Sequence record: LT907986.1
Length of the DNA: 58,998 nucleotides
Origin: Escherichia phage vB_Eco_SLUR25
Direction: 5' to 3' (one strand)
Shown: in pieces, positions 25,750-36,440 of the stretch
Position numbering within the stretch: position 1 is the first letter of the stretch
How the letters are laid out: the number at the start of each line of letters is the position of its first letter
Program-made: the position numbers and the translations under genes
Notes under the pieces: model-generated
What the model was told of the DNA's origin: nothing
Database searches by the model: none
What the model saw: the letters and a program-made list of their open reading frames with translations, nothing else

Positions 25750-25816
25750 TTGAAGAAAATATCAAATATTGGAAAGGCTTTATTGACGAAATGTTGAAAC
25801 CGTTGGAGAAGAAATA

Positions 25817-26209
25817 ATGCTATTAGTCGTCACCGGAGGTCGAAATTTTAAGCATGTGGAGTATATTTATGCTCAATTGGATAAGCTGCATATGCAAAGA
25901 AGGATAACCACACTTCGCCACGGTGACGCTGACGGTGTTGACCGCATTTGCGCACAGTGGGCAGAGCGCAACGGTATTAAGACAGAAGCGTTCCCTGCCC
26001 CGTGGGACAATCTTTCCTTACCAAATACCAAGATACGGTATAACGCCAAAGGTGCTTATAACGCACAAGCAGGCGCTTATCGCAATCAATTAATGCTGGA
26101 TACCGATCCTAAACCGGATCACGCTATTGTGTTTCCTGGCGGAGCTGGTACTATGGATATGTACAGACGGATTAAAGCATCCGGTATTCCTTACACATTA
26201 GCGGAGTAA
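25817..26209 (+). CDS. SLOG/DUF2493-like (Rossmann-like ligand-binding) protein
   Basis: LLVVTGGRNF ... HGDADGVDRICAQWAERNG ... FPGGAGTMDM resembles recalled DUF2493/YspA pattern. Confidence 0.4.
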   Translation: MLLVVTGGRNFKHVEYIYAQLDKLHMQRRITTLRHGDADGVDRICAQWAERNGIKTEAFPAPWDNLSLPNTKIRYNAKGAYNAQAGAYRNQLMLDTDPKPDHAIVFPGGAGTMDMYRRIKASGIPYTLAE

Positions 26210-26212
26210 ATA

Positions 26213-26683
26213 ATGGCTGACGTTAAAACTATTGTTGATGCAATGGACGAATCCAAAGACTGCCAACTGAAGAAGTCATTTGAAGTAAAACAGGTTACAG
26301 AGACTCAGTTGGTTTGTAATTTTGCGCGTTATTGTGGACTGGGGCGCGGGAAAGACTGGAACGGGCTTATTGTTATGCCCACATCACAGATTCTCGTTTA
26401 CGTCCGCAACGTTGTAGAAGATGTTCTGCGTCTTCAGGTTGAAATTGGTGACGTAGAAATTAACATGACCGCGAGTTCTACCATTGTGGTTAAATGGCAG
26501 TCGGGCGAGACACTGCGTTTGGAAGCGTGTCATTGTGCTAAGAGCTTGCACCACCTGCGCGGCTGTCATTACCAGTTCGTTGGGTTTGTACATCCGCAAG
26601 GGTTAAGCGAGCGTACGGCGCTGGTAGCGCGTTTGCTGCTGCGTCCTTATAATAACGAGCCGGAAGTTATATACGAGGCATAA
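26213..26683 (+). CDS. hypothetical protein
   Basis: 156 aa ORF. Confidence 0.5.
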   Translation: MADVKTIVDAMDESKDCQLKKSFEVKQVTETQLVCNFARYCGLGRGKDWNGLIVMPTSQILVYVRNVVEDVLRLQVEIGDVEINMTASSTIVVKWQSGETLRLEACHCAKSLHHLRGCHYQFVGFVHPQGLSERTALVARLLLRPYNNEPEVIYEA

Positions 26684-26684
26684 A

Positions 26685-27110
26685 ATGTCAGTAAATTTTG
26701 TCAAACAGCCAACTTTAAATACATGCGTTTCTGCGTGTTTGGCAATGATCCTTAATAAACCTGTTGAGAAGGTTATTGAGGAATTTCATAGTCGTTATTA
26801 TAACAACTGGGAAATCACTATCAGCGAATATTTGACTAAAAACGGCGTCCAGCATCATTGTTCAGAAGGTGGTGGACGTGAAACTTTGCATATGGGAGGT
26901 TTGTTCCTGTGCACGGTGCCAAGTCTTAATATTCCTGGCGCATTGCACCAGATTGTGATTGATATGACGGATCACAAGTTTATTGTGCATGATCCAATTA
27001 AAGGATGGGAAGGTAAAAAGTTCTATGTTGGTCCGGATCAAGATCCTGAAGAGCCTGGAGCTTTTATCATTCATACTTGGGTCAAAGACGTTGAAATCCT
27101 GCCTTATTAA
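26685..27110 (+). CDS. papain-like cysteine peptidase (C39-like)
   Basis: N-terminal Q-x5-C in KQPTLNTCVSACLAMIL and downstream His/Asp (FIVHDP), as in C39 peptidases. Confidence 0.45.
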   Translation: MSVNFVKQPTLNTCVSACLAMILNKPVEKVIEEFHSRYYNNWEITISEYLTKNGVQHHCSEGGGRETLHMGGLFLCTVPSLNIPGALHQIVIDMTDHKFIVHDPIKGWEGKKFYVGPDQDPEEPGAFIIHTWVKDVEILPY

Positions 27111-27172
27111 TTTTCTTGCTATCACATAACCCTTCATTGTATTGTGTACCCATCGAATAAGAGGGGTACACA

Positions 27173-27358
27173 ATGACCAAACTATACGCCGGATTGTTTT
27201 TATTTGCGACGTTAATGTTCGCTGGGCTTTATACCTATACAGTAGTCGAACAACCTTCCACGGTTATCCGAATCTTTGCAAGTATAGGGCTTTGCATCTG
27301 TCTTATTCTATTTGTTTTATGCATTGTTATTATCCAAGACCAAAGGAAAATTAAATGA
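27173..27358 (+). CDS. small two-helix membrane protein
   Basis: 61 aa, two hydrophobic segments. Confidence 0.45.
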   Translation: MTKLYAGLFLFATLMFAGLYTYTVVEQPSTVIRIFASIGLCICLILFVLCIVIIQDQRKIK

Positions 27359-27819
27359 CCACAATTGCGTTTGATGGAAAAGTATTAGCCGCGGACCGTG
27401 GAGTTATGCGCGGGGAAGCCGTGACTGCTTATAAGAAAGTTCATAGCGTGAATGGACATCGTGGACGGTTTTTACTGGGCTTGTGCGGCCTTACAGCATT
27501 TACCGATCAGGTGTTGCGTTATTTTAATAGCGCGGAACCTGTTAAGTTCCCTGATATTAAACTTTACAGCAAAGATGATGATTACGGGCAAACTTGCGGT
27601 CTTGCTGTCACTCCGGAAGGTACTTGCCATTTTATTTATAATGATGGTACTTTGAGCGAGCCCATGCTGGATGGATGGGGGTCTGAGGGTAGCGGTTGTG
27701 TGTTTGCTGCTGGCGCGTTAGCTGCTGGTGCAAGTGCGAGCGAAGCTATTGAGTTGGCAATTAAACACACCACATGCGCATTCCTGGGAGTTGATACAAT
27801 ATCATTTGAGGGTTTTTAA
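27355..27819 (+). CDS. Ntn-hydrolase of the HslV/proteasome beta-subunit type
   Basis: N-terminus MTTIAFDGKVLAADRG (Thr after initiator Met), internal KKV, C-terminal GSEGSG...AAGA...EAIELA resembling recalled HslV. Confidence 0.45.
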   Translation: MTTIAFDGKVLAADRGVMRGEAVTAYKKVHSVNGHRGRFLLGLCGLTAFTDQVLRYFNSAEPVKFPDIKLYSKDDDYGQTCGLAVTPEGTCHFIYNDGTLSEPMLDGWGSEGSGCVFAAGALAAGASASEAIELAIKHTTCAFLGVDTISFEGF

Positions 27820-28080
27820 ATGACTACATTCAGTCACCTGATCCCACCTGCTTATCATAGTAAGGTAGTTGACCACGGGACGCATGTTGTAATTGGTGGC
27901 GAAATCTTTATCACAGATAACGAGGAAATCGCCATTGCAATTATTGACAGCACTCAGCATGACTTTATGGTTATCCTGCAACACGAACCAGATAACTTCA
28001 CTTTTTACTCCAGCTACGGGGTCGATAAAGGTGGAAAAAGCCTTGTTAGCTGGTACATTAGCGAGTGGTTTGACGGGTAA
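27820..28080 (+). CDS. hypothetical protein
   Basis: 86 aa ORF. Confidence 0.45.
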   Translation: MTTFSHLIPPAYHSKVVDHGTHVVIGGEIFITDNEEIAIAIIDSTQHDFMVILQHEPDNFTFYSSYGVDKGGKSLVSWYISEWFDG

Positions 28081-28161
28081 TCTCCTTAGATCAATTCTCC
28101 TTGCGCCGTATCAAGTTTCTCTGTTACCCTTGAGTGGTTCATGTCAAGCGGAGGAACTCGA

Positions 28162-28600
28162 TATGGCACTTCAACCTCGTGGTATTCGTAATAACAATCC
28201 AGGCAATATTCGCTGGGGTGATAATTGGCAGGGCTTAGTTCCTGCTGATAAGCGAACCGATAAATCTTTTGCTCAATTCACGCAACCGATTTACGGCATT
28301 CGTGCGCTAGCGAAAATCCTGACAAACTACACCAAACGTGAAGGCTTACCCAATGTGGGTAAGAAAAACATCGACACTGTACGTGAAATTATCGCTCGCT
28401 GGGCACCGCCTAACGAAAACGATACGGAAGCGTATATTCGCTCTGTTGCCAAAGCAATTGGTGTTCAACCTAACGATCCAATTAATGTCTTCGACAAGGC
28501 AATTATGTCAGGATTGGTGAAAGCAATCATTCGTCATGAAAATGGCATGATGCCCTATACCGACGACGTAATTAACCGCGCTATTGCAATGGTACTTTAA
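28162..28600 (+). CDS. putative endolysin (peptidoglycan hydrolase, class not determined)
   Basis: ATG 28162 with GGAGGA RBS; 146 aa; immediately upstream of holin and spanins; motif RNNNPGNIR. Confidence 0.45.
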
Positions 28601-28603
28601 CTG

Positions 28604-28626
28604 ACGGGGCGTTAGCCCCTTTTATT
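28604..28626 (+). terminator. terminator-like hairpin between endolysin and holin
   Basis: GGGGC-GTTA-GCCCC followed by TTTTATTT. Confidence 0.4.
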
Positions 28627-28636
28627 TGGAGGGAAC

Positions 28637-28981
28637 ATGTTCAATTCACCCAACGAACATTGGGCAGTTCTAGCGGGGTTTGCGTTTATCTCCCTCATTG
28701 GGGGAGCTCTCGGTTATGTCATGCGTACAATAGACGCTGGTAAGAAAGTACGGGCAAGCATTGCGTTTCTTGAAGGCTTATCCGCCGCTTTCTTTGGCGT
28801 TATAATGTATGCGATCTACAGGGAGTTTAACATCAGCCTTTGGTTCGCTTTTGGCCTTGCTGGCCTATTTGCTTGGGCAGGTTCACGTGCTACGCTAAAA
28901 GCCCTAACGTCGCTTATAGCTTCACGGACAGGGATCAAACTCGATTCAGGGGACTGCAAACATGAAAACAATTCTAAATAA
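28637..28981 (+). CDS. holin (multi-TM membrane protein)
   Basis: 114 aa, three hydrophobic helices, charged C-terminus; position in lysis cassette. Confidence 0.45.
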   Translation: MFNSPNEHWAVLAGFAFISLIGGALGYVMRTIDAGKKVRASIAFLEGLSAAFFGVIMYAIYREFNISLWFAFGLAGLFAWAGSRATLKALTSLIASRTGIKLDSGDCKHENNSK

Positions 28982-29438
28982 CTTCTTCAGTTTTATAAAA
29001 ACTAAACCGCGTCTGTTTATCGAGTATTTGATGATCGGTGCGGTTGTGTTTTTATGCGGGGTGGCTGCATACTTGTGGTCACAGAACGAGCTCAGCAAAA
29101 CTAATTTAAATCATGCTGAGCAAAGACTAACCGTTGTAGAACGGGACAATGCAAAGCTGGGCGAAGCTGTTGTATTTCTTGCATCCCAACGGGAGAAGGA
29201 TACTGAATCCTATCGAAAATTGGCTTCAGCAATTGAAAGTGAGCAACATAACCACAGGTTGCTTCAGGACAAATTAAAAGCACTGGAGAAAAGCAATGCC
29301 GACGTCAAAGCTTATCTTAATGAGCGTGTTCCTGATGATTTGCGCAGGCTGCTCGACGGAGATACAACCTCCACCACCGCCGCAGATAGTGAAGATAAAA
29401 CTTCCGGCCCATCTGTTGGTAGAATGTCGGGAAGTTGA
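28962..29438 (+). CDS. i-spanin (Rz-like inner-membrane spanin)
   Basis: N-terminal TM helix followed by coiled-coil-like periplasmic region; o-spanin embedded out of frame. Confidence 0.5.
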   Translation: MKTILNNFFSFIKTKPRLFIEYLMIGAVVFLCGVAAYLWSQNELSKTNLNHAEQRLTVVERDNAKLGEAVVFLASQREKDTESYRKLASAIESEQHNHRLLQDKLKALEKSNADVKAYLNERVPDDLRRLLDGDTTSTTAADSEDKTSGPSVGRMSGS

Positions 29439-29601
29439 TAAATATCCTTTGGTTTATACAAGGGACATTATCCAACGTTTGCAGGATACAGAAACAGCTC
29501 TGACTGAATGTAAACTGAGGGTTAAGGAAATCATACGCTATGAAGCTGAAAATGTTTCGCTTGATTTTGTAGGATCAAGCAATTATATTCAGCCTAAATA
29601 G
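29296..29601 (+). CDS. o-spanin (Rz1-like outer-membrane lipoprotein), embedded in i-spanin gene
   Basis: Signal peptide with lipobox ICAGC followed by Pro-rich segment PPPPPQ; out-of-frame overlap with 28962..29438. Confidence 0.55.
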   Translation: MPTSKLILMSVFLMICAGCSTEIQPPPPPQIVKIKLPAHLLVECREVDKYPLVYTRDIIQRLQDTETALTECKLRVKEIIRYEAENVSLDFVGSSNYIQPK

Positions 29602-29621: not shown

Positions 29622-30179
29622 ATGAACGGGGCAAGTCAAGAGCAATATGATCGTGACTGGACGAATTACATCCAGTATGCAAATAGCTTGTCCGCTGAAG
29701 AGATGGCAATACGTGACAAAGTTGTTGCTGAGTACATGTTCGACTACAATTGGACTAACGCTTGCATGAGATGCGGGTTCAATGCTATGTTTGCACAGGA
29801 GCTTGGCCAACGCTTTGCCACGGACTGTTATGTTCGATGGAAGCTCAAGGAGATTGAAAGATCCCGTGTTCAACGTACTTCTGAGCAAGCTAACATTGAA
29901 GCAGACCTTGAGCGTCAGCATATCATTGAAGCATTAAAACGTGAAGCTCATTATACAGGACCGGGATCTTCTCAAGCTGCTAGAGTCGCCGCATTGGGCA
30001 AGCTTGCACAAATTTATGATTTGGATGCTCCCAAGAAGGCTAAGATTGATGTTACTAACAGAGGCGGCGTAATGATAGTCCCTGCTGTAGCAAATATTGA
30101 CGAATGGGAAAAAACTGCATCCGAGTCTCAACAACGACTAGTTAAAGAGACTGAAGATGGAGCTAAACCGACAACCTGA
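29622..30179 (+). CDS. terminase small subunit
   Basis: 185 aa ORF immediately upstream of and overlapping large terminase; RBS AGGGGG. Confidence 0.5.
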   Translation: MNGASQEQYDRDWTNYIQYANSLSAEEMAIRDKVVAEYMFDYNWTNACMRCGFNAMFAQELGQRFATDCYVRWKLKEIERSRVQRTSEQANIEADLERQHIIEALKREAHYTGPGSSQAARVAALGKLAQIYDLDAPKKAKIDVTNRGGVMIVPAVANIDEWEKTASESQQRLVKETEDGAKPTT

Positions 30180-31716
30180 TAACATGCCGCGAGTCGTCTG
30201 GAAACCACATCCAGGTTCACAGACACTCGCTCTATCCTGCCCCGCTGATATTATCCTATACCACGGAACTCGCGGTCCTGGAAAAACGGACTGCCAGCTT
30301 ATGCGTTTCCGTAAGAATGTTGGTGTAGGGTACGGTAAATTTTGGAAGGGTATTATATTCGACCGTGAATATAAAAACCTTGATGACCTTGTAACTAAAT
30401 CCCAGCGTTGGTTTCCTGAATTTAAAGACGGGGCTAAATTCCTTAGCTCTAAGTCTGATTATAAATGGGTTTGGCCTACAGGTGAAGAGCTACTGTTCCG
30501 CGTTGCTTGTAAAGAAAAGGATTACTGGTCTTATCACGGTCACGAATACCCATTTATCGGATGGAACGAATTAACAAAATATCCGGACGGGCGTTTGTTT
30601 GAAGCTATGATGTCCTGTAACCGTTCATCTTTCTTACCAGAAGATAACCCAATTATTAATCCAGATGGTACGGTCACATATTTACCGGATATCCCTCTTG
30701 AAGTGTTTGCTACCAGTAACCCGTTTGGTGCGGGGCATAACTGGGTTAAGAAACGCTTCATTGACGCTGCACCGATGGGTAAAATACTCAGGAAGACTAC
30801 GCGAGTGTTTAACCCGAGGACGCAGAAAGACGAAGATGTGGTTACGACGCAATGCCATATCTTTGGTTCGTACCGTGAAAACAAAAACCTAAGTCCAAAA
30901 TATATTGCAGAACTTATGTCTATCACAGACCCGAACAAGCGTGCTGCATGGTTGGGCGGGAGCTGGGATATTACATCCGGTGGTATGTTCGATGATCTGT
31001 GGCGTAGCACTGTTCACAAAGTACGACCATTCCCGATTCCAGCGAGTTGGAAGATTACACGTTCTTTCGACTGGGGTTCTTCAAAACCGTTCTCTGTCGG
31101 TTGGTGGGCTATTAGTGATGGTTCGGATGTTGTGCGTGAAGATGGCACTACATTCTCCACGGTCCGCGGTGACCTGTTTAGGATTAACGAATGGTATGGG
31201 ACCAACGGTAAAACAAACGAAGGTCTACATTTGCTGGACTCAGAAATTGCAAGCGGTATACTGGAGCGGGAATTGGCCTGGGGTATACACGATCGTGTAG
31301 TTCCTGGTCCTGCGGATAACTCCATTTGGGATCTGGAGAACAATAACTCCACCGCTGCAACAATGGCGAAGAAAATTCGTCTTAACGGGAAGTTATACGA
31401 CGGTATACATTGGAAGCGCAGTGATAAGTCTGCTGGGTCACGTAAACGGGGCTGGCAGAAAATGCGTGAGTTCCTTAAAGCTGCACTGCGGGAAGATGCG
31501 AACGGTAAACCTTTGCCCGGTCCGCGCGAGAATCCAGCAATGTACATTTTTGATAACTGCAACTATTTCTTTGAGCTGGTTCCAAGTCTACCTCGCGATG
31601 AAGTAGATCAGGACGACGTTGATACGGAATGTGAAGACCATATGGGTGATGAAGTTCGTTATATGGTTCTGGATCAAGCTGTTTATACAGGTGTTGGCAA
31701 AACTATCGGTATTTAA
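30157..31716 (+). CDS. terminase large subunit
   Basis: Walker A GTRGPGKT near N-terminus; ~520 aa; acidic C-terminal nuclease-like region; start could alternatively be 30184. Confidence 0.85.
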   Translation: MELNRQPDNMPRVVWKPHPGSQTLALSCPADIILYHGTRGPGKTDCQLMRFRKNVGVGYGKFWKGIIFDREYKNLDDLVTKSQRWFPEFKDGAKFLSSKSDYKWVWPTGEELLFRVACKEKDYWSYHGHEYPFIGWNELTKYPDGRLFEAMMSCNRSSFLPEDNPIINPDGTVTYLPDIPLEVFATSNPFGAGHNWVKKRFIDAAPMGKILRKTTRVFNPRTQKDEDVVTTQCHIFGSYRENKNLSPKYIAELMSITDPNKRAAWLGGSWDITSGGMFDDLWRSTVHKVRPFPIPASWKITRSFDWGSSKPFSVGWWAISDGSDVVREDGTTFSTVRGDLFRINEWYGTNGKTNEGLHLLDSEIASGILERELAWGIHDRVVPGPADNSIWDLENNNSTAATMAKKIRLNGKLYDGIHWKRSDKSAGSRKRGWQKMREFLKAALREDANGKPLPGPRENPAMYIFDNCNYFFELVPSLPRDEVDQDDVDTECEDHMGDEVRYMVLDQAVYTGVGKTIGI

Positions 31717-31727
31717 CTGGAGGGTAT

Positions 31728-33224
31728 ATGGGTATTGATGCAACTCACCCGCTATATGACAAGTGGAAGGACGCATGGGTTAAGTGCAACGACTGCTATG
31801 AGGGTGAAGATAAAATTAAAGAAGAAGGTGTTAAATATCTACCACCTTTAGCTTCCATGATTATTGATGGGATGAATAATCCTAATGATTTGGGCTTTCA
31901 ACGTTGGCTCGCTTATCGTCTGCGTGCTAACTTCCCTGACGATTATTCAAGTGCGGTTACAAACAATTTAGGTCTGCTACACCAGAAGCCTCCTACAATC
32001 CAGCTCCCACCTGAAATGGAATACATGCGGGAGCTGTGTACTGCGGACGGTGAAGACATTATTGCTCTGCTACGTCGCATCAATGAAATGCAGTTAAAAA
32101 ATGGACGTTTGGGCCTGCTGCTGGACTTGCCGAAAGGTGAGGATGTAAATAACAGACCTTATATTAGCGTTTATGATGCTTTATCCATTATCAACTGGGA
32201 TGATGGTAAAGATGAATTGGGCAATATCAACTTGAACATGGTTGTTCTGGATGAAAGCGGTCCTGTGCGTGTCAATCAGTTTGACTGGAAAGAAGAGAAG
32301 CGTTATCGCGTTCTACAATTAGGTCCAATGGACACAGATGAAGTAGCAGGTGGAGCGGTCTACTCCCAACATCTGTTTATTAACAATACCAATTATGATG
32401 AAGGGCAAATGATTGCTCCTTATTATAAAGGTAATACGCTGGATGAAATTCCTTTCCAGTTTGTCAATACAACAGATATTACCCCAGCACCGGAAGCGCC
32501 GCCATTGTTGGGTCTTGCTAACATTTGTCTAAGCATGTACCGAAGTGACGCGGATTACCGCCAATGCTTGCATATGCAGGGTCAGGATACTTTAGTTGTT
32601 GTTGGTGGTTCCATGGAAAATGGAGATAAAGCCCCTCAGCGTATTGGTCCTGGTGCAGTCATTAACGTTTCTCAGGGAGGTGACGCTAAATATGTAGGTG
32701 TTAGCGGTGACGGTTTGTCCGAGCAACGTCTCGCACTGGCAGCGGATAAGCAGGAAGCCCAAATTAAAGCCGGGCAAATGGTAAACAATACCAAGAGTAC
32801 GCAGGAATCGGGTGAAGCCATGAAAACGCGTATTGCTGCGCGTACAGCTAGTCTGATTCGAATTGCGTATACTGGTGCGGCTGGTTTGGAAAACTTGCTG
32901 AAGGTTTGCGCTAAGTGGATGGGTGCTGATCCCGAGAAAGTTGTGGTTAAGCCTAATCTTGAATTTACCAAGAGCATGTTTAACGGTCAGGACTTTGTTC
33001 AAATTATTACTGCACGCAACCTTAAGGCTCCGATTAGCTTGCAGTCTATTCATGGCTGGCTTGTTGATCAGGGCTTGACCACACTAAGCTTTGAAGAAGA
33101 AATGGCAATTCTTGAAGAAGAGCTTAAGAAGTGGCCTCTGCCTGATGATGCTAAAGCTGATTTAAACGCAGAGCAGCAAGTAAGCAAAGATCCTAAGGAA
33201 GACAACGCTTCCGATAAAGAATAG
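31728..33224 (+). CDS. portal protein
   Basis: 498 aa ORF directly after terminase large subunit; acidic C-terminus. Confidence 0.6.
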   Translation: MGIDATHPLYDKWKDAWVKCNDCYEGEDKIKEEGVKYLPPLASMIIDGMNNPNDLGFQRWLAYRLRANFPDDYSSAVTNNLGLLHQKPPTIQLPPEMEYMRELCTADGEDIIALLRRINEMQLKNGRLGLLLDLPKGEDVNNRPYISVYDALSIINWDDGKDELGNINLNMVVLDESGPVRVNQFDWKEEKRYRVLQLGPMDTDEVAGGAVYSQHLFINNTNYDEGQMIAPYYKGNTLDEIPFQFVNTTDITPAPEAPPLLGLANICLSMYRSDADYRQCLHMQGQDTLVVVGGSMENGDKAPQRIGPGAVINVSQGGDAKYVGVSGDGLSEQRLALAADKQEAQIKAGQMVNNTKSTQESGEAMKTRIAARTASLIRIAYTGAAGLENLLKVCAKWMGADPEKVVVKPNLEFTKSMFNGQDFVQIITARNLKAPISLQSIHGWLVDQGLTTLSFEEEMAILEEELKKWPLPDDAKADLNAEQQVSKDPKEDNASDKE

Positions 33225-33319
33225 TTGCAACTTCCAAGTTGATTGGTTTATATTAACGAACACGGGGCTGGGACGGCTCAGCTCCAAAAACGTCACACGG
33301 GTGACAACGGAGATAAGAA

Positions 33320-34192
33320 ATGAAAAAGAGTTCTGTAGCTATTAGTGTTGGTATGGCTTTAATTAATCCACGCGCTCGCGGTGAAGGTGATGTGGAACTG
33401 GAATACGAATATGCATCTGCGGAAGAGATCCCGGCAGAGTTTGCAACTCTTTACGCAGAGCAGGGCGGTAAATACGTTCTTGCAAAAGTTAAAGGTGTAG
33501 CCCCTGCTGATAGCGTTCGTCGTCTGGAAAGTGCGTTAGCTAAAGAACGTAACGACCATCGTCAGGTGAAGCAACAGATTAGCGCACTTGGGCGTCCGGT
33601 TGAAGAAGTCCTTGCGGACCTTGATCGTATTCCTCAACTGGAAGCTGCCGCTAACGGTAAAGGTACTCCGGAAGACATCGAAAAGATGGTTAAAGCCCGT
33701 CTTGCTCCGCTCGAGCGTCAATTGCAAACTGTAGCAGCTGAACGCGATTCCGTTAAGCAGGAAATTGAAGGCTACCGCACTCGCGAAACTAAAGCGAAAA
33801 TTAAAGACGCAGTTATTGCCGCTGCATCCGGTGCTAAGCTGCGTCCGTCTGCTATCGAAGATGCGGTGACTTATGCACAGTTGCAAATGACCGTCGACGA
33901 GAACGGCAATGTGGTTACGAAAGATGGGGCGGGTGTAACTCCATACCTAACCCCGGCGGATTGGCTTAACGAGATCCTCCCGAAACGTCCTCACTGGGTT
34001 GAAGGATCTGCTGGTGGTGGTGCATCTGGTCCGGGCGCTGGCGGACATCACGGCGAAGACCCTTACAGTCACGACGGTTGGAACATCTCTAAACAGATGA
34101 ATCTCTGGAAAACTAATCAATCTTTAGCTAAACGCTTAGCTGAAAAGAATGGCGTAGACCCGCTGAAGCCTGTACGTCCTGCTAAGAAATAA
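33320..34192 (+). CDS. putative scaffolding protein
   Basis: 290 aa, alpha-helical/coiled-coil-like charged protein between portal and major capsid genes. Confidence 0.45.
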   Translation: MKKSSVAISVGMALINPRARGEGDVELEYEYASAEEIPAEFATLYAEQGGKYVLAKVKGVAPADSVRRLESALAKERNDHRQVKQQISALGRPVEEVLADLDRIPQLEAAANGKGTPEDIEKMVKARLAPLERQLQTVAAERDSVKQEIEGYRTRETKAKIKDAVIAAASGAKLRPSAIEDAVTYAQLQMTVDENGNVVTKDGAGVTPYLTPADWLNEILPKRPHWVEGSAGGGASGPGAGGHHGEDPYSHDGWNISKQMNLWKTNQSLAKRLAEKNGVDPLKPVRPAKK

Positions 34193-34314
34193 GTTGACAT
34201 CCCGACGTCCCTGATGTTAAGTTTCAACACATCAGGGACACGGGTTCCTAAACAGCCTTCCACGGGGAAAGGCTACCAACAGTAAACAAATCAATCCTTT
34301 TCCTGGAGACAAGT

Positions 34315-35376
34315 ATGTCTAAATCTAAAATTATTCTACCATTTGGTCGTGGTGAAACTGACCTGACTCGTTTGAAGGATGTCATTGTCCCTGAGATCTT
34401 CACTGGTTATGTGCAGACGCAGACTGCTGAACTTTCTGCTCTGATTCAATCCGGTGCGGTTGTAATGGACGAGCGTTTATCTGCTAACCTTGCTGGTGCA
34501 GGTCTGACTTTTAACGAGCCGTTCTATAACGACCTGAAAGATGAAGACGAAGATATCGCGGTTGATAAAGGCAATCCGTCCAAACCGTCAAACATCACTA
34601 CCGGATCTGAAGTTCAGGTTCGTATGAGCCGTTCGAAATCCTGGGGTTCTGCGGATCTGGTATCAGCTTTGATTGGTAACGACCCAATGACCGCTATCGG
34701 TAACCGCGTGTCTGCGTGGTGGGTTCGCCGTCTGCAAGCTGCATACATCGCAACCTGGAAAGGCGTATTTGCTAATGCGAAGAAATCCCATAACGATGAT
34801 CTGACGTTCGATATTTCCGGTTCTTCATTTGTAAACAACCAGACCAACTTTACCGCGTCTAACTTCATCAACGCAACTGCAACGATGGGTGATGCTGCTC
34901 GTGGTCTGACCATGATTATGGTGCACTCTACCGTTCGTAACCGTATGCGTCAGCTGAACCTGATCGACTTCATTCCGGATGCTCGCGGTGAAACTCAGTT
35001 TGAGTATTATCAGGGCCTGCGTATTATCGAAGACGACTCCATGCCACACGATCCGTCTACTGGTGTGTTTGAAAGCTGGCTGTTCGGCCCGGGCGCGACT
35101 GCAATGGGTGCTGGATCACCGAAAGTTCCGACCGCTGTGGTGCGTGACGAAGCCGCTAACCAAGGCGCTGGTGAAGAAGTTCTTCACAACCGTGTTGAAT
35201 GGATTCTGCATCCGGTTGGCCATGCTTGGGCTGCTGCTCAAACTGCTAAAGGTGGTCCGTCTAACGCTGCTACCACTAACAACCTGGCCCATGAAGATTC
35301 CTGGCGTCGTGCGTTCCCTGAGCGCAAGCAGCTTAAAGTTGCACGCCTGATTACTCGTGAGTATCAGGGTTCCTAA
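34315..35376 (+). CDS. major capsid protein
   Basis: 353 aa ORF in capsid position, followed by strong terminator as expected for a highly expressed gene. Confidence 0.65.
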   Translation: MSKSKIILPFGRGETDLTRLKDVIVPEIFTGYVQTQTAELSALIQSGAVVMDERLSANLAGAGLTFNEPFYNDLKDEDEDIAVDKGNPSKPSNITTGSEVQVRMSRSKSWGSADLVSALIGNDPMTAIGNRVSAWWVRRLQAAYIATWKGVFANAKKSHNDDLTFDISGSSFVNNQTNFTASNFINATATMGDAARGLTMIMVHSTVRNRMRQLNLIDFIPDARGETQFEYYQGLRIIEDDSMPHDPSTGVFESWLFGPGATAMGAGSPKVPTAVVRDEAANQGAGEEVLHNRVEWILHPVGHAWAAAQTAKGGPSNAATTNNLAHEDSWRRAFPERKQLKVARLITREYQGS

Positions 35377-35406
35377 GGCTTCACTCAACGCCGCGCTGTA
35401 GTATTT

Positions 35407-35433
35407 TGGGGACATCTTATGTCCCCTCTTTTT
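35407..35433 (+). terminator. rho-independent terminator after major capsid gene
   Basis: GGGGACA-TCTTA-TGTCCCC followed by TCTTTTTT. Confidence 0.6.
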
Positions 35434-35446
35434 TAGGAGAACAACC

Positions 35447-35770
35447 ATGCGTTATCAACGTTATGAGCGACATGACTTGATGGAAAAATCGTTGCAGGTG
35501 GAGCCAATTTCGATTACTCTCGATCCTGCTACGATTGACACCACAACTTCAGAAGTAAAAACGGTTACTGTTAAAATAAACTTTGTCCCAGGCGGAACTA
35601 CAAACAAAGCGTATAGCGCGTCAGTTGACGGTTCCTCTGCTACAATTAAAGACAACGGGGACGGTACAATTACTGTGACCACAACCGCAAGCAGTGGTAC
35701 TTCAAACTTGACAGTAACGTCCAAGGCAAAGGATAGTGTTACTGGTACATGTGTTATTAATGTGACCTAA
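35447..35770 (+). CDS. Ig-like (Big_2-type) domain protein, possible capsid decoration
   Basis: Thr/Ser-rich beta-strand pattern VKTVTVKINFVPGG ... TITVTTTASSG typical of bacterial Ig-like domains; AGGAG RBS. Confidence 0.4.
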   Translation: MRYQRYERHDLMEKSLQVEPISITLDPATIDTTTSEVKTVTVKINFVPGGTTNKAYSASVDGSSATIKDNGDGTITVTTTASSGTSNLTVTSKAKDSVTGTCVINVT

Positions 35771-35786
35771 AAATAAGGATTAAACA

Positions 35787-36440
35787 ATGAAGACATTAAT
35801 TGAAGCATTGTTAGAACTTGATCCGGATAACCCGAATCATTGGACTAGCGACGGTCTACCTAAAGTTGACGCTCTGCGTTTCGCTACCGCTAACCCATCT
35901 TTAACTCGCGACGATATTACAACTGCTGCTCCGCTGTTTACCCGCGATAACCGCGTGCTGGAAGAGCCCGAGCCAGTGGAACCTGTTAAATCTGCGGACC
36001 CAGTTTTACATGAAGCAGTTAAACAGGAGAAAGCTCATGAAGAACAAAAGAAAGTCGCGGTTGCAACGATGCAAATCGAAGTTAAGATTAGCGAAGCACT
36101 GCGTGCTCTTCTGGAGCCGGAAAAAATCGGTGACACTTCCAGCCTAAGCGATGAAGAGCTGAAAGCGAAGCGTGAAAAGCTTAGCAATGTGGTTAAAGAG
36201 ATTGCCCACACTAAGCACGCGCTGGAGCTTGCTATTGCCGACGTTCAAGCGGATCTGGATAAGATTATCGTTGAGCAGGAAAGTCGTCGTCCTAAGTCCG
36301 GGCTTACTGCAACTCAGATGTATCTTGAAGCGCAGAAAAAACGTAAACCTGAAGACATGCTTTCTGACCATCTCTTCCAGAACCCTATTGACGATCCGGT
36401 CGCCCGTATGGTTGCGCGTAATATGATGCGTCGAGGTTAA
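35787..36440 (+). CDS. hypothetical structural-module protein
   Basis: 217 aa ORF. Confidence 0.45.
   Translation: MKTLIEALLELDPDNPNHWTSDGLPKVDALRFATANPSLTRDDITTAAPLFTRDNRVLEEPEPVEPVKSADPVLHEAVKQEKAHEEQKKVAVATMQIEVKISEALRALLEPEKIGDTSSLSDEELKAKREKLSNVVKEIAHTKHALELAIADVQADLDKIIVEQESRRPKSGLTATQMYLEAQKKRKPEDMLSDHLFQNPIDDPVARMVARNMMRRG

Follow-up and report, generated by a model that had tools for sequence, protein, structure and literature searches.

Among solved proteins, HslV (ClpQ) of HslUV is the best profile and structure match of the proteasome-like phage protein analyzed here, with which it shares the fold and the Ntn threonine catalytic set; its pocket for the C-terminal tail of HslU is formed by F54, F57, K80 and Q114 (PMC6429459). 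BPH (betaproteobacterial proteasome homologue) and Anbu are stand-alone bacterial proteasome-like rings without a dedicated adjacent ATPase, but they are larger cellular proteins that keep helix H2, whereas the PPH family is a compact phage-borne branch, whose members of about 140 aa occur in Caudovirales and prophages and lack both H2 and a propeptide (Fuchs et al. 2021, PMC8665760). Peptidase family C39 comprises the bacteriocin-processing domains of PCAT/AMS transporters (PCAT1, LahT, ComA), and by the gatekeeper rule for Gly-Gly the catalytic His is followed at once by a conserved aromatic residue (PMC7391069). Prohead proteases have a fixed position between the portal and major head genes and an HK97-gp4/assemblin or ClpP fold.

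Here we compare these systems with a locus of a coliphage (Seuratvirus, Queuovirinae) in which a C39-like gene (C39L) and a PPH-type gene flank the gene of a 61-aa membrane protein; the window below means the whole analyzed stretch of 58,998 nucleotides. The reading that we favor, at a probability of roughly 55%, is that the locus consists of two separate peptidase-type accessory genes of predicted catalytic competence, with non-structural fitness or counter-defence functions, and that these genes form no two-component machine.

Results

Gene map and selection

The three ORFs of the original prediction were present in the ORF listing as given (26685-27110, 27173-27358 and 27355-27819, all on the + strand), and the annotation of phage CAjan has the same three genes (gp84, gp85 and gp86). 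They lie in an accessory block followed by lysis and packaging genes:

25817..26209, +: YspA/YpsA-like SLOG domain protein, 130 aa (Pfam PF10686, 3.5e-18; PHROG 289)
26213..26683, +: 156-aa protein, function unassigned, Seuratvirus-restricted (sole match PHROG 25149)
26685..27110, +: C39L, stand-alone C39-like (clan CA, papain fold) cysteine peptidase-type protein, 141 aa
27111..27172, +: conserved 62-nt intergenic element (candidate promoter and hairpin)
27173..27358, +: 61-aa protein, two predicted transmembrane segments, Seuratvirus-restricted (PHROG 22841 at 7.7e-44)
27355..27819, +: PPH-type proteasome/HslV homologue (Ntn threonine peptidase), 154 aa, starting MTTIAF
27820..28080, +: 86-aa protein, function unassigned, Seuratvirus-restricted (sole match PHROG 23528)
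28163..29601, +: lysis cassette, directly 3' of the accessory block (PHROG 873, 785; Pfam PF16083; CAjan annotation), made up of the next five lines
28163-28600, +: endolysin
28606-28619: terminator-like hairpin after the endolysin gene (terminator scan)
28637-28981, +: holin
28962-29438, +: Rz-like protein
29296-29601, +: lipoprotein Rz1-like ORF
29622..35376, +: packaging/head module with terS, terL, portal, scaffolding protein and major head protein (PHROGs 5334, 2, 145, 206, 247)

The locus had been placed in a middle-gene region, far from the capsid module. Both placements were wrong: it adjoins the lysis and packaging genes, with the endolysin gene 344 nt, terS 1.8 kb and the major head gene about 6.5 kb downstream. 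All genes of the accessory block are under purifying selection, with dN/dS values of 0.04-0.05 for the SLOG gene, 0.07-0.08 for the gene of the 156-aa protein (which had no match in Pfam, NCBIfam or PADLOC), 0.15-0.3 for the 61-aa gene and 0.06 for the gene of the 86-aa protein; comparison of the PPH gene with those of SD04 and KS_W4 revealed 10 synonymous and 0 nonsynonymous differences.

A compact proteasome homologue of the PPH family

The AF2 model of the 154-aa protein (pLDDT 95.6) confirmed the proposed HslV/proteasome-like fold, with HslV and proteasome beta5 as the best Foldseek matches (E 2e-6, probability 1.00) and BPH (5ovu) also among the structural matches. The family profile matched HslV chains at E 2.5e-9, and the protein matched PHROG 1040, 'peptidase HslV family', at 5e-32. 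It stayed under the cut-off of Pfam PF00227 (Proteasome; 15.4 bits vs 22.4), and the NCBIfam search gave no HslV match; single-sequence PDB searches of the locus proteins returned nothing useful, and the BFVD search matched uncharacterised phage proteins only.

The key residues are T2, D14, K28, G42/G45 and the GSG loop G112-S113-G114. The N-terminal Thr, singled out in the original prediction, is indeed retained as T2, the predicted nucleophile after Met removal, and is conserved in homologues. T2, D14 and K28 were invariant in 22 homologues and in 77 viral homologues; because the viral set had been seeded with the pattern MT[TC]IA[WF]D, its Thr count is circular in part; G45, G112 and G114 were likewise invariant, and position 42 was Gly or Ala. 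A check of catalytic conservation found T2/D14/K28/G112-S-G114 of PPH kept in homologues, as were Q8/C14/H88/D103 of C39L. In the model, one helix (47-58) is followed by a loop (59-79) and helix H2 is absent; aligned to the family profile, HslV has H2 as a 13-residue insertion.

By the described features of the family, the 154-aa protein is a PPH member. It has in common with the family a length of about 140-155 aa, the proteasome-beta/HslV core and the equivalents of Thr1, Asp17, Lys33 and the Gly47-region loop, as well as the lack of a propeptide and of H2 and the occurrence in tailed phages and prophages of Proteobacteria; no conflict with the described PPH features was found. The arrangement had not been recognised as a described phage module, but its HslV-like part fits a published family (PMC8665760), and RefSeq and PHROGs already label it 'peptidase HslV family'.

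A stand-alone C39-like protein

The proposed C39-like cysteine peptidase fold was also borne out: the protein is papain-like and closest to C39 domains, with Gln, Cys, His and Asp present as putative catalytic residues (Q8, C14, H88 and D103). Against Pfam PF03412 it scored 14.3 bits, under the cut-off of 22 and over residues 3-25 only, and 7 of 70 relatives matched the Pfam C39 model at E<=0.01. Since C39L sequence profiles found no C39 chain in the PDB, the assignment needed structure comparison. Small stand-alone C39-like peptidases of phages form a family of about 800 sequence clusters.

Unlike the transporter domains, C39L is stand-alone and cytoplasmic, and no ABC (PCAT/AMS) exporter was found near it in the window or at related loci. 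The His-aromatic motif seen in C39 enzymes and DUBs that cleave at Gly-Gly is missing as well: the position after the catalytic His is Q89, and an aromatic residue occurs there in 3/70 representatives and in one of 57 viral ORFs. Because this gatekeeper is missing, the target of C39L is probably neither a double-glycine leader nor a ubiquitin-like tail. The 86-aa neighbour carries VVIGG followed by E at residues 22-27, which is off the leader consensus when judged by eye, and a double-glycine substrate in this protein was considered unconvincing.

The intergenic element and the 61-aa membrane protein

The 62-nt element between the C39L and 61-aa genes contains a candidate promoter (TTGCTA-18-TATTGT, 27116-27145) and a 14-nt inverted repeat with 93% complementary arms (27141-27154 and 27161-27174), and the hairpin is predicted to pair the Shine-Dalgarno sequence and start codon of the 61-aa gene. 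The minimum free energy of its RNA is -20.4 kcal/mol (z -2.3). Salmonella phage STP-SP5 has the element at about 98% identity, vs 71.5% for the surrounding 281 nt. From these features, the element may serve as promoter and hairpin. It has no second copy in the genome and no Rfam match, and as a single copy it was ruled out as a repeated promoter motif.

The small membrane protein claimed for the 61-aa ORF held up, with two hydrophobic segments and the PHROG 22841 match. The 61-aa and PPH genes share an ATGA stop/start overlap. There is no 61-aa gene between the C39L and PPH genes of JenK1, the metagenomic contig L131 and PSTCR7, and in phage SeppeHuegi a homing endonuclease is inserted at the 3' junction of the 61-aa gene.

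Distribution of the two families and the question of a coupled module

C39L lay beside 2 of 80 IMG/VR PPH loci, both from Seuratvirus, and the other 78 were without it. Many unrelated phages have one family without the other: PPH is the one present in Nankokuvirus, Vibrio, Klebsiella and other phages, and C39L in Ackermannviridae, VP2-like vibriophages, 91-94 kb Pseudomonas phages and lambdoid nin regions. Adjacency of the two is confined to Queuovirinae and Craquatrovirus, just upstream of lysis/terminase genes, where a YpsA-like SLOG gene usually accompanies them.

A tentative alternative, to which we give limited weight, is a single pathway shared by C39L and PPH and possibly also by the SLOG protein. 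C39L might, for example, make a first specific cut, after which the ring protease would degrade the fragments, or the SLOG protein might sense a nucleotide signal and control the proteases. Consistent with such coupling, C39L and PPH are found within about 1 kb of each other in Seuratvirus, Nonagvirus (JenK1 gp78 and gp80), L131 and the Craquatrovirus Providencia phage PSTCR7, and this adjacency persists at 25-40% protein identity, in three gene orders and often with overlapping stop/start codons. SLOG is contiguous with both in L131 and PSTCR7 (orthologues 40% and 33% identical, respectively), and PPH and C39L are 3-5.6 kb apart in five lambdoid Pseudomonas-type contigs. However, the adjacent cases are all related 57-63 kb siphophages with terS, holin and Rz homologues in common, and one ancestral acquisition could explain them all; for this reason co-occurrence was rejected as proof of a system. 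Most lineages have just one of the two families, there is no PPH propeptide to be processed, and the homing endonuclease of SeppeHuegi parts the upstream genes from PPH. The two genes also differ in recombination history within Seuratvirus, C39L alleles showing a dS of 0.8-1.15 vs 0.10 for PPH. The paired proteolytic system of the original prediction is thus weak: most lineages carry one family alone, and adjacency is seen only in the related Queuovirinae/Craquatrovirus group.

Counter-defence

Host-takeover or anti-defence roles of PPH and C39L are possible under the favored reading of two separate accessory genes. A further alternative, which we consider doubtful, is that SLOG, C39L and PPH make up a counter-defence cassette, a virus-encoded degradation system that would need no ATPase and would act in the late phase of infection to remove host immune proteins or the nucleotide signals of these proteins. 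The SLOG gene of the accessory block would be of a nucleotide-binding or -processing type, and a counter-defence role is predicted for viral YpsA-like SLOG proteins (PMC9503650). Neither PPH nor C39L matched in PADLOC, which models defence, not anti-defence, proteins; the phage proteases that activate CBASS in a 2026 preprint are prohead proteases and not of the PPH or C39L families; and the searchable literature contained no experiment or published function for either family.

Regarding timing, C39L and the endolysin gene are not separated by a terminator-like site, and the PPH homologue gp143 of Pseudomonas phage PAK_P3 was classed as late (log2FC 3.8, padj 1e-8). Judged by this late-transcribed homologue, an early takeover role of PPH is improbable.

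HslU dependence

As the original prediction stated, a cognate HslU is absent: there is no ATPase among the neighbouring ORFs. Enterobacterial hosts encode HslU, and PPH, as a homologue of HslV in a phage that encodes no ATPase partner, might dock onto it; the resulting ATP-dependent hybrid would then redirect host proteolysis. This hijack, and with it the suggestion of HslU as a host partner, is unlikely because the docking pocket is not conserved in PPH. In an alignment with HslV of H. influenzae, PPH has D51 at the position of F54 and L54 at that of F57, and the H2 segment with K80, part of the HslU-facing surface, is deleted. PPH is moreover about 20 residues shorter than HslV and only about 17-20% identical to it.

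Morphogenesis and lysis

The claim that neither protein is a prohead protease is supported, in that neither gene looks like a canonical one. PPH and C39L differ from such enzymes in fold and lie upstream of the lysis cassette, and the prohead-protease reading was rejected on these two grounds and because PPH sits at varying sites in other phages. A broader morphogenetic or virion-associated role of PPH or C39L, by cleavage of head or scaffold proteins or as a packaged and injected protein, is improbable as well. It draws on the head module, in which scaffold and major head genes are present but no prohead protease is recognisable and no protease domain was found by Pfam, on the late class of the PAK_P3 homologue, and on other phages in which PPH adjoins terS or terL, the head-tail adaptor Ad1 or neck proteins. 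These sites vary (after terL, before terS, adaptor-neck), as is typical of moron-like insertions; the PAK_P3 gene belongs to a non-structural operon that also encodes a helicase and a DprA-like protein; and the major head protein of the window phage matches its family profile end to end, without a delta domain.

Improbable, too, is a lysis-associated role, with C39L as a cell-wall or isopeptide hydrolase or with the proteases and the 61-aa membrane protein tuning lysis timing: endolysin, holin and spanin genes lie directly downstream in all Queuovirinae and Craquatrovirus members examined, the terminator scan found no terminator-like site from C39L to the endolysin gene, and the PAK_P3 operon also holds an endolysin gene, but lambdoid C39L lies in the nin region beside NinB, outside the lysis cassette, C39L has no wall-binding domain, its sequence match to PeiR is not significant (E about 1), and the lysis cassette of the phage is already complete.

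Discussion

We return to the reading of two separate accessory genes. The block, which in Queuovirinae and Craquatrovirus is co-directional and lies upstream of the lysis cassette and terminase genes, would probably be transcribed in the middle-to-late phase, and PPH and C39L would then act on host, and possibly phage, proteins in the infected cell. Since PPH has no propeptide, cleavage of Met1 by host methionine aminopeptidase would leave the Thr exposed as Ntn nucleophile. By analogy with HslV and BPH, PPH is probably a ring-shaped, self-compartmentalised peptidase. Because it lacks helix H2 and the HslU-tail pocket, it most likely needs no host HslU ATPase and takes as substrates peptides, or proteins that are unfolded or loosely folded. 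C39L would be a minimal cytoplasmic Cys/His/Asp enzyme with a Gln oxyanion residue.

The comparison narrows the hypotheses for this locus: PPH is probably HslU-independent and probably no early takeover factor, and C39L is probably not Gly-Gly-specific. Should the counter-defence cassette be real, a viral proteasome homologue would have its first assigned function. Virus-encoded proteasome homologues were catalogued in 2021 and are now placed beside C39L in engineerable E. coli K-12 phages; phage GottfriedDienst, whose record names E. coli K-12 as host, has PPH and C39L sequences identical to those of the window. Because both proteins occur in such easily engineered phages, the viral mini-proteasome is testable by simple mutants, and catalytic-site mutants could show what it is for.

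Gene organization and selection at the peptidase locus

Listing of the open reading frames confirmed the three co-directional genes predicted at 26685-27819:

26685-27110, plus strand: C39L, a stand-alone C39-like cysteine peptidase-type protein of 141 aa
27173-27358, plus strand: TM61, a 61-aa protein with two hydrophobic, predicted transmembrane segments
27355-27819, plus strand: PPH, a 154-aa HslV-like protein (MTTIAF...) of the phage proteasome homologue family

The TM61 and PPH frames overlap in ATGA, and the three genes correspond to gp84, gp85 and gp86 of phage CAjan, the last annotated as 'peptidase HslV family'. The region 25800-28700 was 100% identical to Escherichia phage vB_Eco_SLUR63 (LR025196.1, 58,998 bp) and 92-99% identical to ~30 Seuratvirus phages (Queuovirinae), CAjan and Seurat among them; several of these relatives, e.g. 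GottfriedDienst, were isolated on E. coli K-12. Comparison with divergent Seuratvirus members revealed purifying selection on every gene of the block (a SLOG-domain gene, C39L, PPH and their neighbours): the PPH gene showed 10 synonymous and 0 nonsynonymous differences, and dN/dS was ~0.1 for C39L and 0.15-0.3 for TM61.

The 62-nt spacer before TM61 (27111-27174) is ~98% identical in Salmonella phage STP-SP5, compared with ~71% for the flanking coding DNA. It contains a hairpin with 14-nt arms (-20 kcal/mol) that pairs the TM61 Shine-Dalgarno sequence and start codon, preceded by a promoter-like TTGCTA-18-TATTGT. The spacer is likely a cis-regulatory element for the TM61 and PPH genes, and possibly for the lysis genes too. 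At the TM61/PPH junction (window ~27359), SeppeHuegi (MZ501104.1) carries an inserted putative homing endonuclease; the two genes can therefore do without translational coupling.

The HslV-like protein is a phage proteasome homologue

As a single sequence, PPH scored 15.4 bits against Pfam Proteasome, under threshold, and matched PHROG 1040 (5e-32). A profile of 22 homologues retrieved HslV chains from the PDB (E 2.5e-9), followed by archaeal/eukaryotic beta subunits and BPH; the AlphaFold model was confident (pLDDT 95.6) and its first Foldseek matches were HslV and beta5, upholding the HslV/proteasome-like fold of the original prediction. The N-terminal Thr that it had pointed out is also kept: T2, D14, K28, G45, G112 and G114 showed little or no variation across the 22 homologues and across 77 distinct viral ones; because the N-terminal motif served as the seed for the viral sequences, their Thr count is partly circular. 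G42 is equivalent to the oxyanion Gly47, and relatives have Gly or Ala there.

Fuchs et al. (2021) described the family as proteins of ~140 residues in Caudovirales and prophages, with no helix H2 and no propeptide (PMC8665760). The protein here matches all of these features; its model has one helix (47-58) and then a loop at the place expected for H2, and, compared with the PPH profile, HslV sequences carry 13 extra residues that make up the H2 segment. Judged by these features, the gene is a further member of this named family, labelled already in public annotation.

C39L has a C39-like fold outside C39 proper

The Pfam C39 model covered only residues 3-25 of C39L, under threshold, and the protein matched PHROG 4049 (unknown function) at 9e-58. 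An exhaustive profile search (E<=1e-3) yielded 824 related cluster representatives, mostly of 135-160 aa; Q8, C14, H88, D103 and P104 were invariant in 70 of them, as were the catalytic four (Q8, C14, H88, D103) in 57 viral ORFs. This conserved Gln/Cys/His/Asp set, together with a good model (pLDDT 90), bears out the proposed C39-like fold. Hermanns et al. (2020) reported a conserved His-[FYW] motif as the mark of post-Gly-Gly cutters, C39 included (PMC7391069); the residue following the catalytic His is Gln in C39L, and is aromatic in just 3/70 representatives and 1/57 viral ORFs. C39L thus shares the fold of peptidase C39 but lies outside C39 proper, since it scores too low on the curated model, has no transporter gene nearby and lacks the gatekeeper residue; its chemistry may be that of a peptidase, a deamidase or acyl transfer. 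C39L represents a large phage family without annotation; one homologue, in the CSP1C record, is labelled 'cysteine protease' already. The ~61-kb phages PQ561393.1 (Ec1-ASingh) and PP848851.1 (vB_Kpn2-P2) each have two C39L copies, located far apart in the genome.

C39L and PPH are adjacent in one related phage group

Adjacent C39L and PPH genes were found in four groups, with 25-40% protein identity across versions: Seuratvirus; Nonagvirus (JenK1 gp78 and gp80, spaced by an unrelated gp79); a 61-kb contig, L131 (C39L, SLOG, PPH); and Craquatrovirus PSTCR7 (contiguous SLOG, C39L, PPH with overlapping stop/start codons). These phages are kin (terS 38%, holin 40% identical), and thus one acquisition by a common ancestor may account for the adjacency.

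Among 80 IMG/VR PPH loci (+/-6 kb), C39L was present only in the Seuratvirus ones, and PPH lay within 6 kb in 9/65 C39L loci: three Seuratvirus, the 61-kb contig and five lambdoid Pseudomonas-type contigs, in which C39L sits in the nin region with PPH 3-5.6 kb downstream. In lambdoid Pseudomonas-type phages (high-GC contigs L085-L146), the nin-region C39L lies 3' of replication genes (DnaC-like loader) and directly 5' of a NinB-like gene. PPH occurs without C39L in Nankokuvirus (KPP10, PAK_P3) and in Vibrio, Klebsiella, Brevundimonas and Caulobacter phages, and C39L without PPH in Ackermannviridae, VP2-like vibriophages and 91-94 kb Pseudomonas phages. Within Seuratvirus, dS was 0.8-1.15 for C39L versus 0.10 for PPH; relative to Aeromonas phage SD04 (L150) and Escherichia phage KS_W4 (L151), C39L was 83% identical in amino acids and PPH 100%. 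Judged from these sequences, the dS gap indicates separate recombination histories, with mosaic exchange of the C39L gene.

On whether the two genes form a system, these data pull both ways. A coupled module of the two peptidases, the paired proteolytic system first proposed, is doubtful: each family stands alone elsewhere, adjacency is confined to one related phage group, and dS differs. We conclude that C39L and PPH instead belong to a conserved accessory-gene block of one lineage and are not an obligate pair. No description of the conserved SLOG, C39L, PPH block upstream of lysis genes appears to exist in the literature that could be searched; the block is, however, lineage-restricted.

HslU dependence and genomic setting

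In HslV, residues F54, F57, K80 (on H2) and Q114 contribute to the pocket that takes up the C-terminal tail of HslU (PMC6429459). Aligned to H. influenzae HslV, PPH has D51 and L54 in place of F54 and F57 and a deletion at K80, and no ATPase gene was found among the neighbouring genes; a hybrid with host HslU thus seems unlikely. Hijacking of HslU, with the phage protein docking on the host ATPase, is accordingly a very improbable function, given the loss of H2 and the pocket residues.

The block is encoded on the rightward strand, 3' of small unknown genes and directly before endolysin, holin and Rz/Rz1, which are followed in order by terS, terL, portal, scaffold and major head protein; its description as far from the capsid module was inaccurate. 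The head module (29622-36440: terS, terL, portal with DUF4055, scaffold, major head protein) contained no prohead protease recognisable by PHROGs or Pfam, a gap that a morphogenetic or packaged protease might fill. The fold, the variable position of PPH and its PAK_P3 context make this role similarly improbable. PPH in other phages is most often flanked directly by terS/terL, head-tail adaptor Ad1 and neck proteins, and in some by NinB, HNH endonucleases and methyltransferases; the placement is variable and moron-like, inside late operons. In PAK_P3, the PPH homologue gp143 shares a non-structural operon with genes for a helicase, a DprA-like protein of the SLOG superfamily and an endolysin, and is late in published RNA-seq (log2FC 3.8, 13 min vs 3.5 min, padj 1e-8).

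A terminator scan found no terminator-like site between C39L and the endolysin gene and one 3' of endolysin (28606-28619); a lysis-linked function is nevertheless the least probable reading. Part of the Rz-like gene (28962-29438) is shared, in another frame, with a lipoprotein-type ORF (29296-29601; MPTSKLILMSVFLMICAGCS...) that extends beyond the end of the Rz-like gene, an overlapped spanin arrangement; the equivalent CAjan annotation is a short hypothetical ORF only.

The SLOG neighbour and the proposed role

The ORF at 25817-26209 encodes a YspA/YpsA-like SLOG protein (PF10686, 3.5e-18), and genes of this SLOG type accompany C39L and PPH in three groups of related phages (window 25817-26209; L131 6462-6830; L148 2897-3412). 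The PSTCR7 SLOG has a Cys-rich N-terminal extension, and contig L036 has a SLOG gene (1742-2122) near PPH without C39L. Iyer et al. (2022) predicted a role of viral YpsA-like SLOG proteins in countering immune signals derived from ADP-ribose (PMC9503650), and the neighbour thus hints, indirectly, at a possible counter-defence role for the block. PADLOC, which models defence and not anti-defence proteins, gave zero matches to the block.

The folds, catalytic sets, purifying selection, distribution and loss of H2, HslU-pocket residues and Gly-Gly gatekeeper are direct observations. In the mechanism that we propose, Met1 removal would expose Thr1 of PPH, which would assemble into a ring and act on peptides or unfolded proteins independently of HslU; C39L would make a specific, non-Gly-Gly cut as a cysteine enzyme; and the block would be expressed middle-to-late, in a host-directed accessory or counter-defence role. 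We give this overall picture of accessory peptidases a probability of about 0.55. The value of the locus lies in tractability: viral proteasome homologues are still without an assigned function, and this PPH is carried by phages that infect E. coli K-12.
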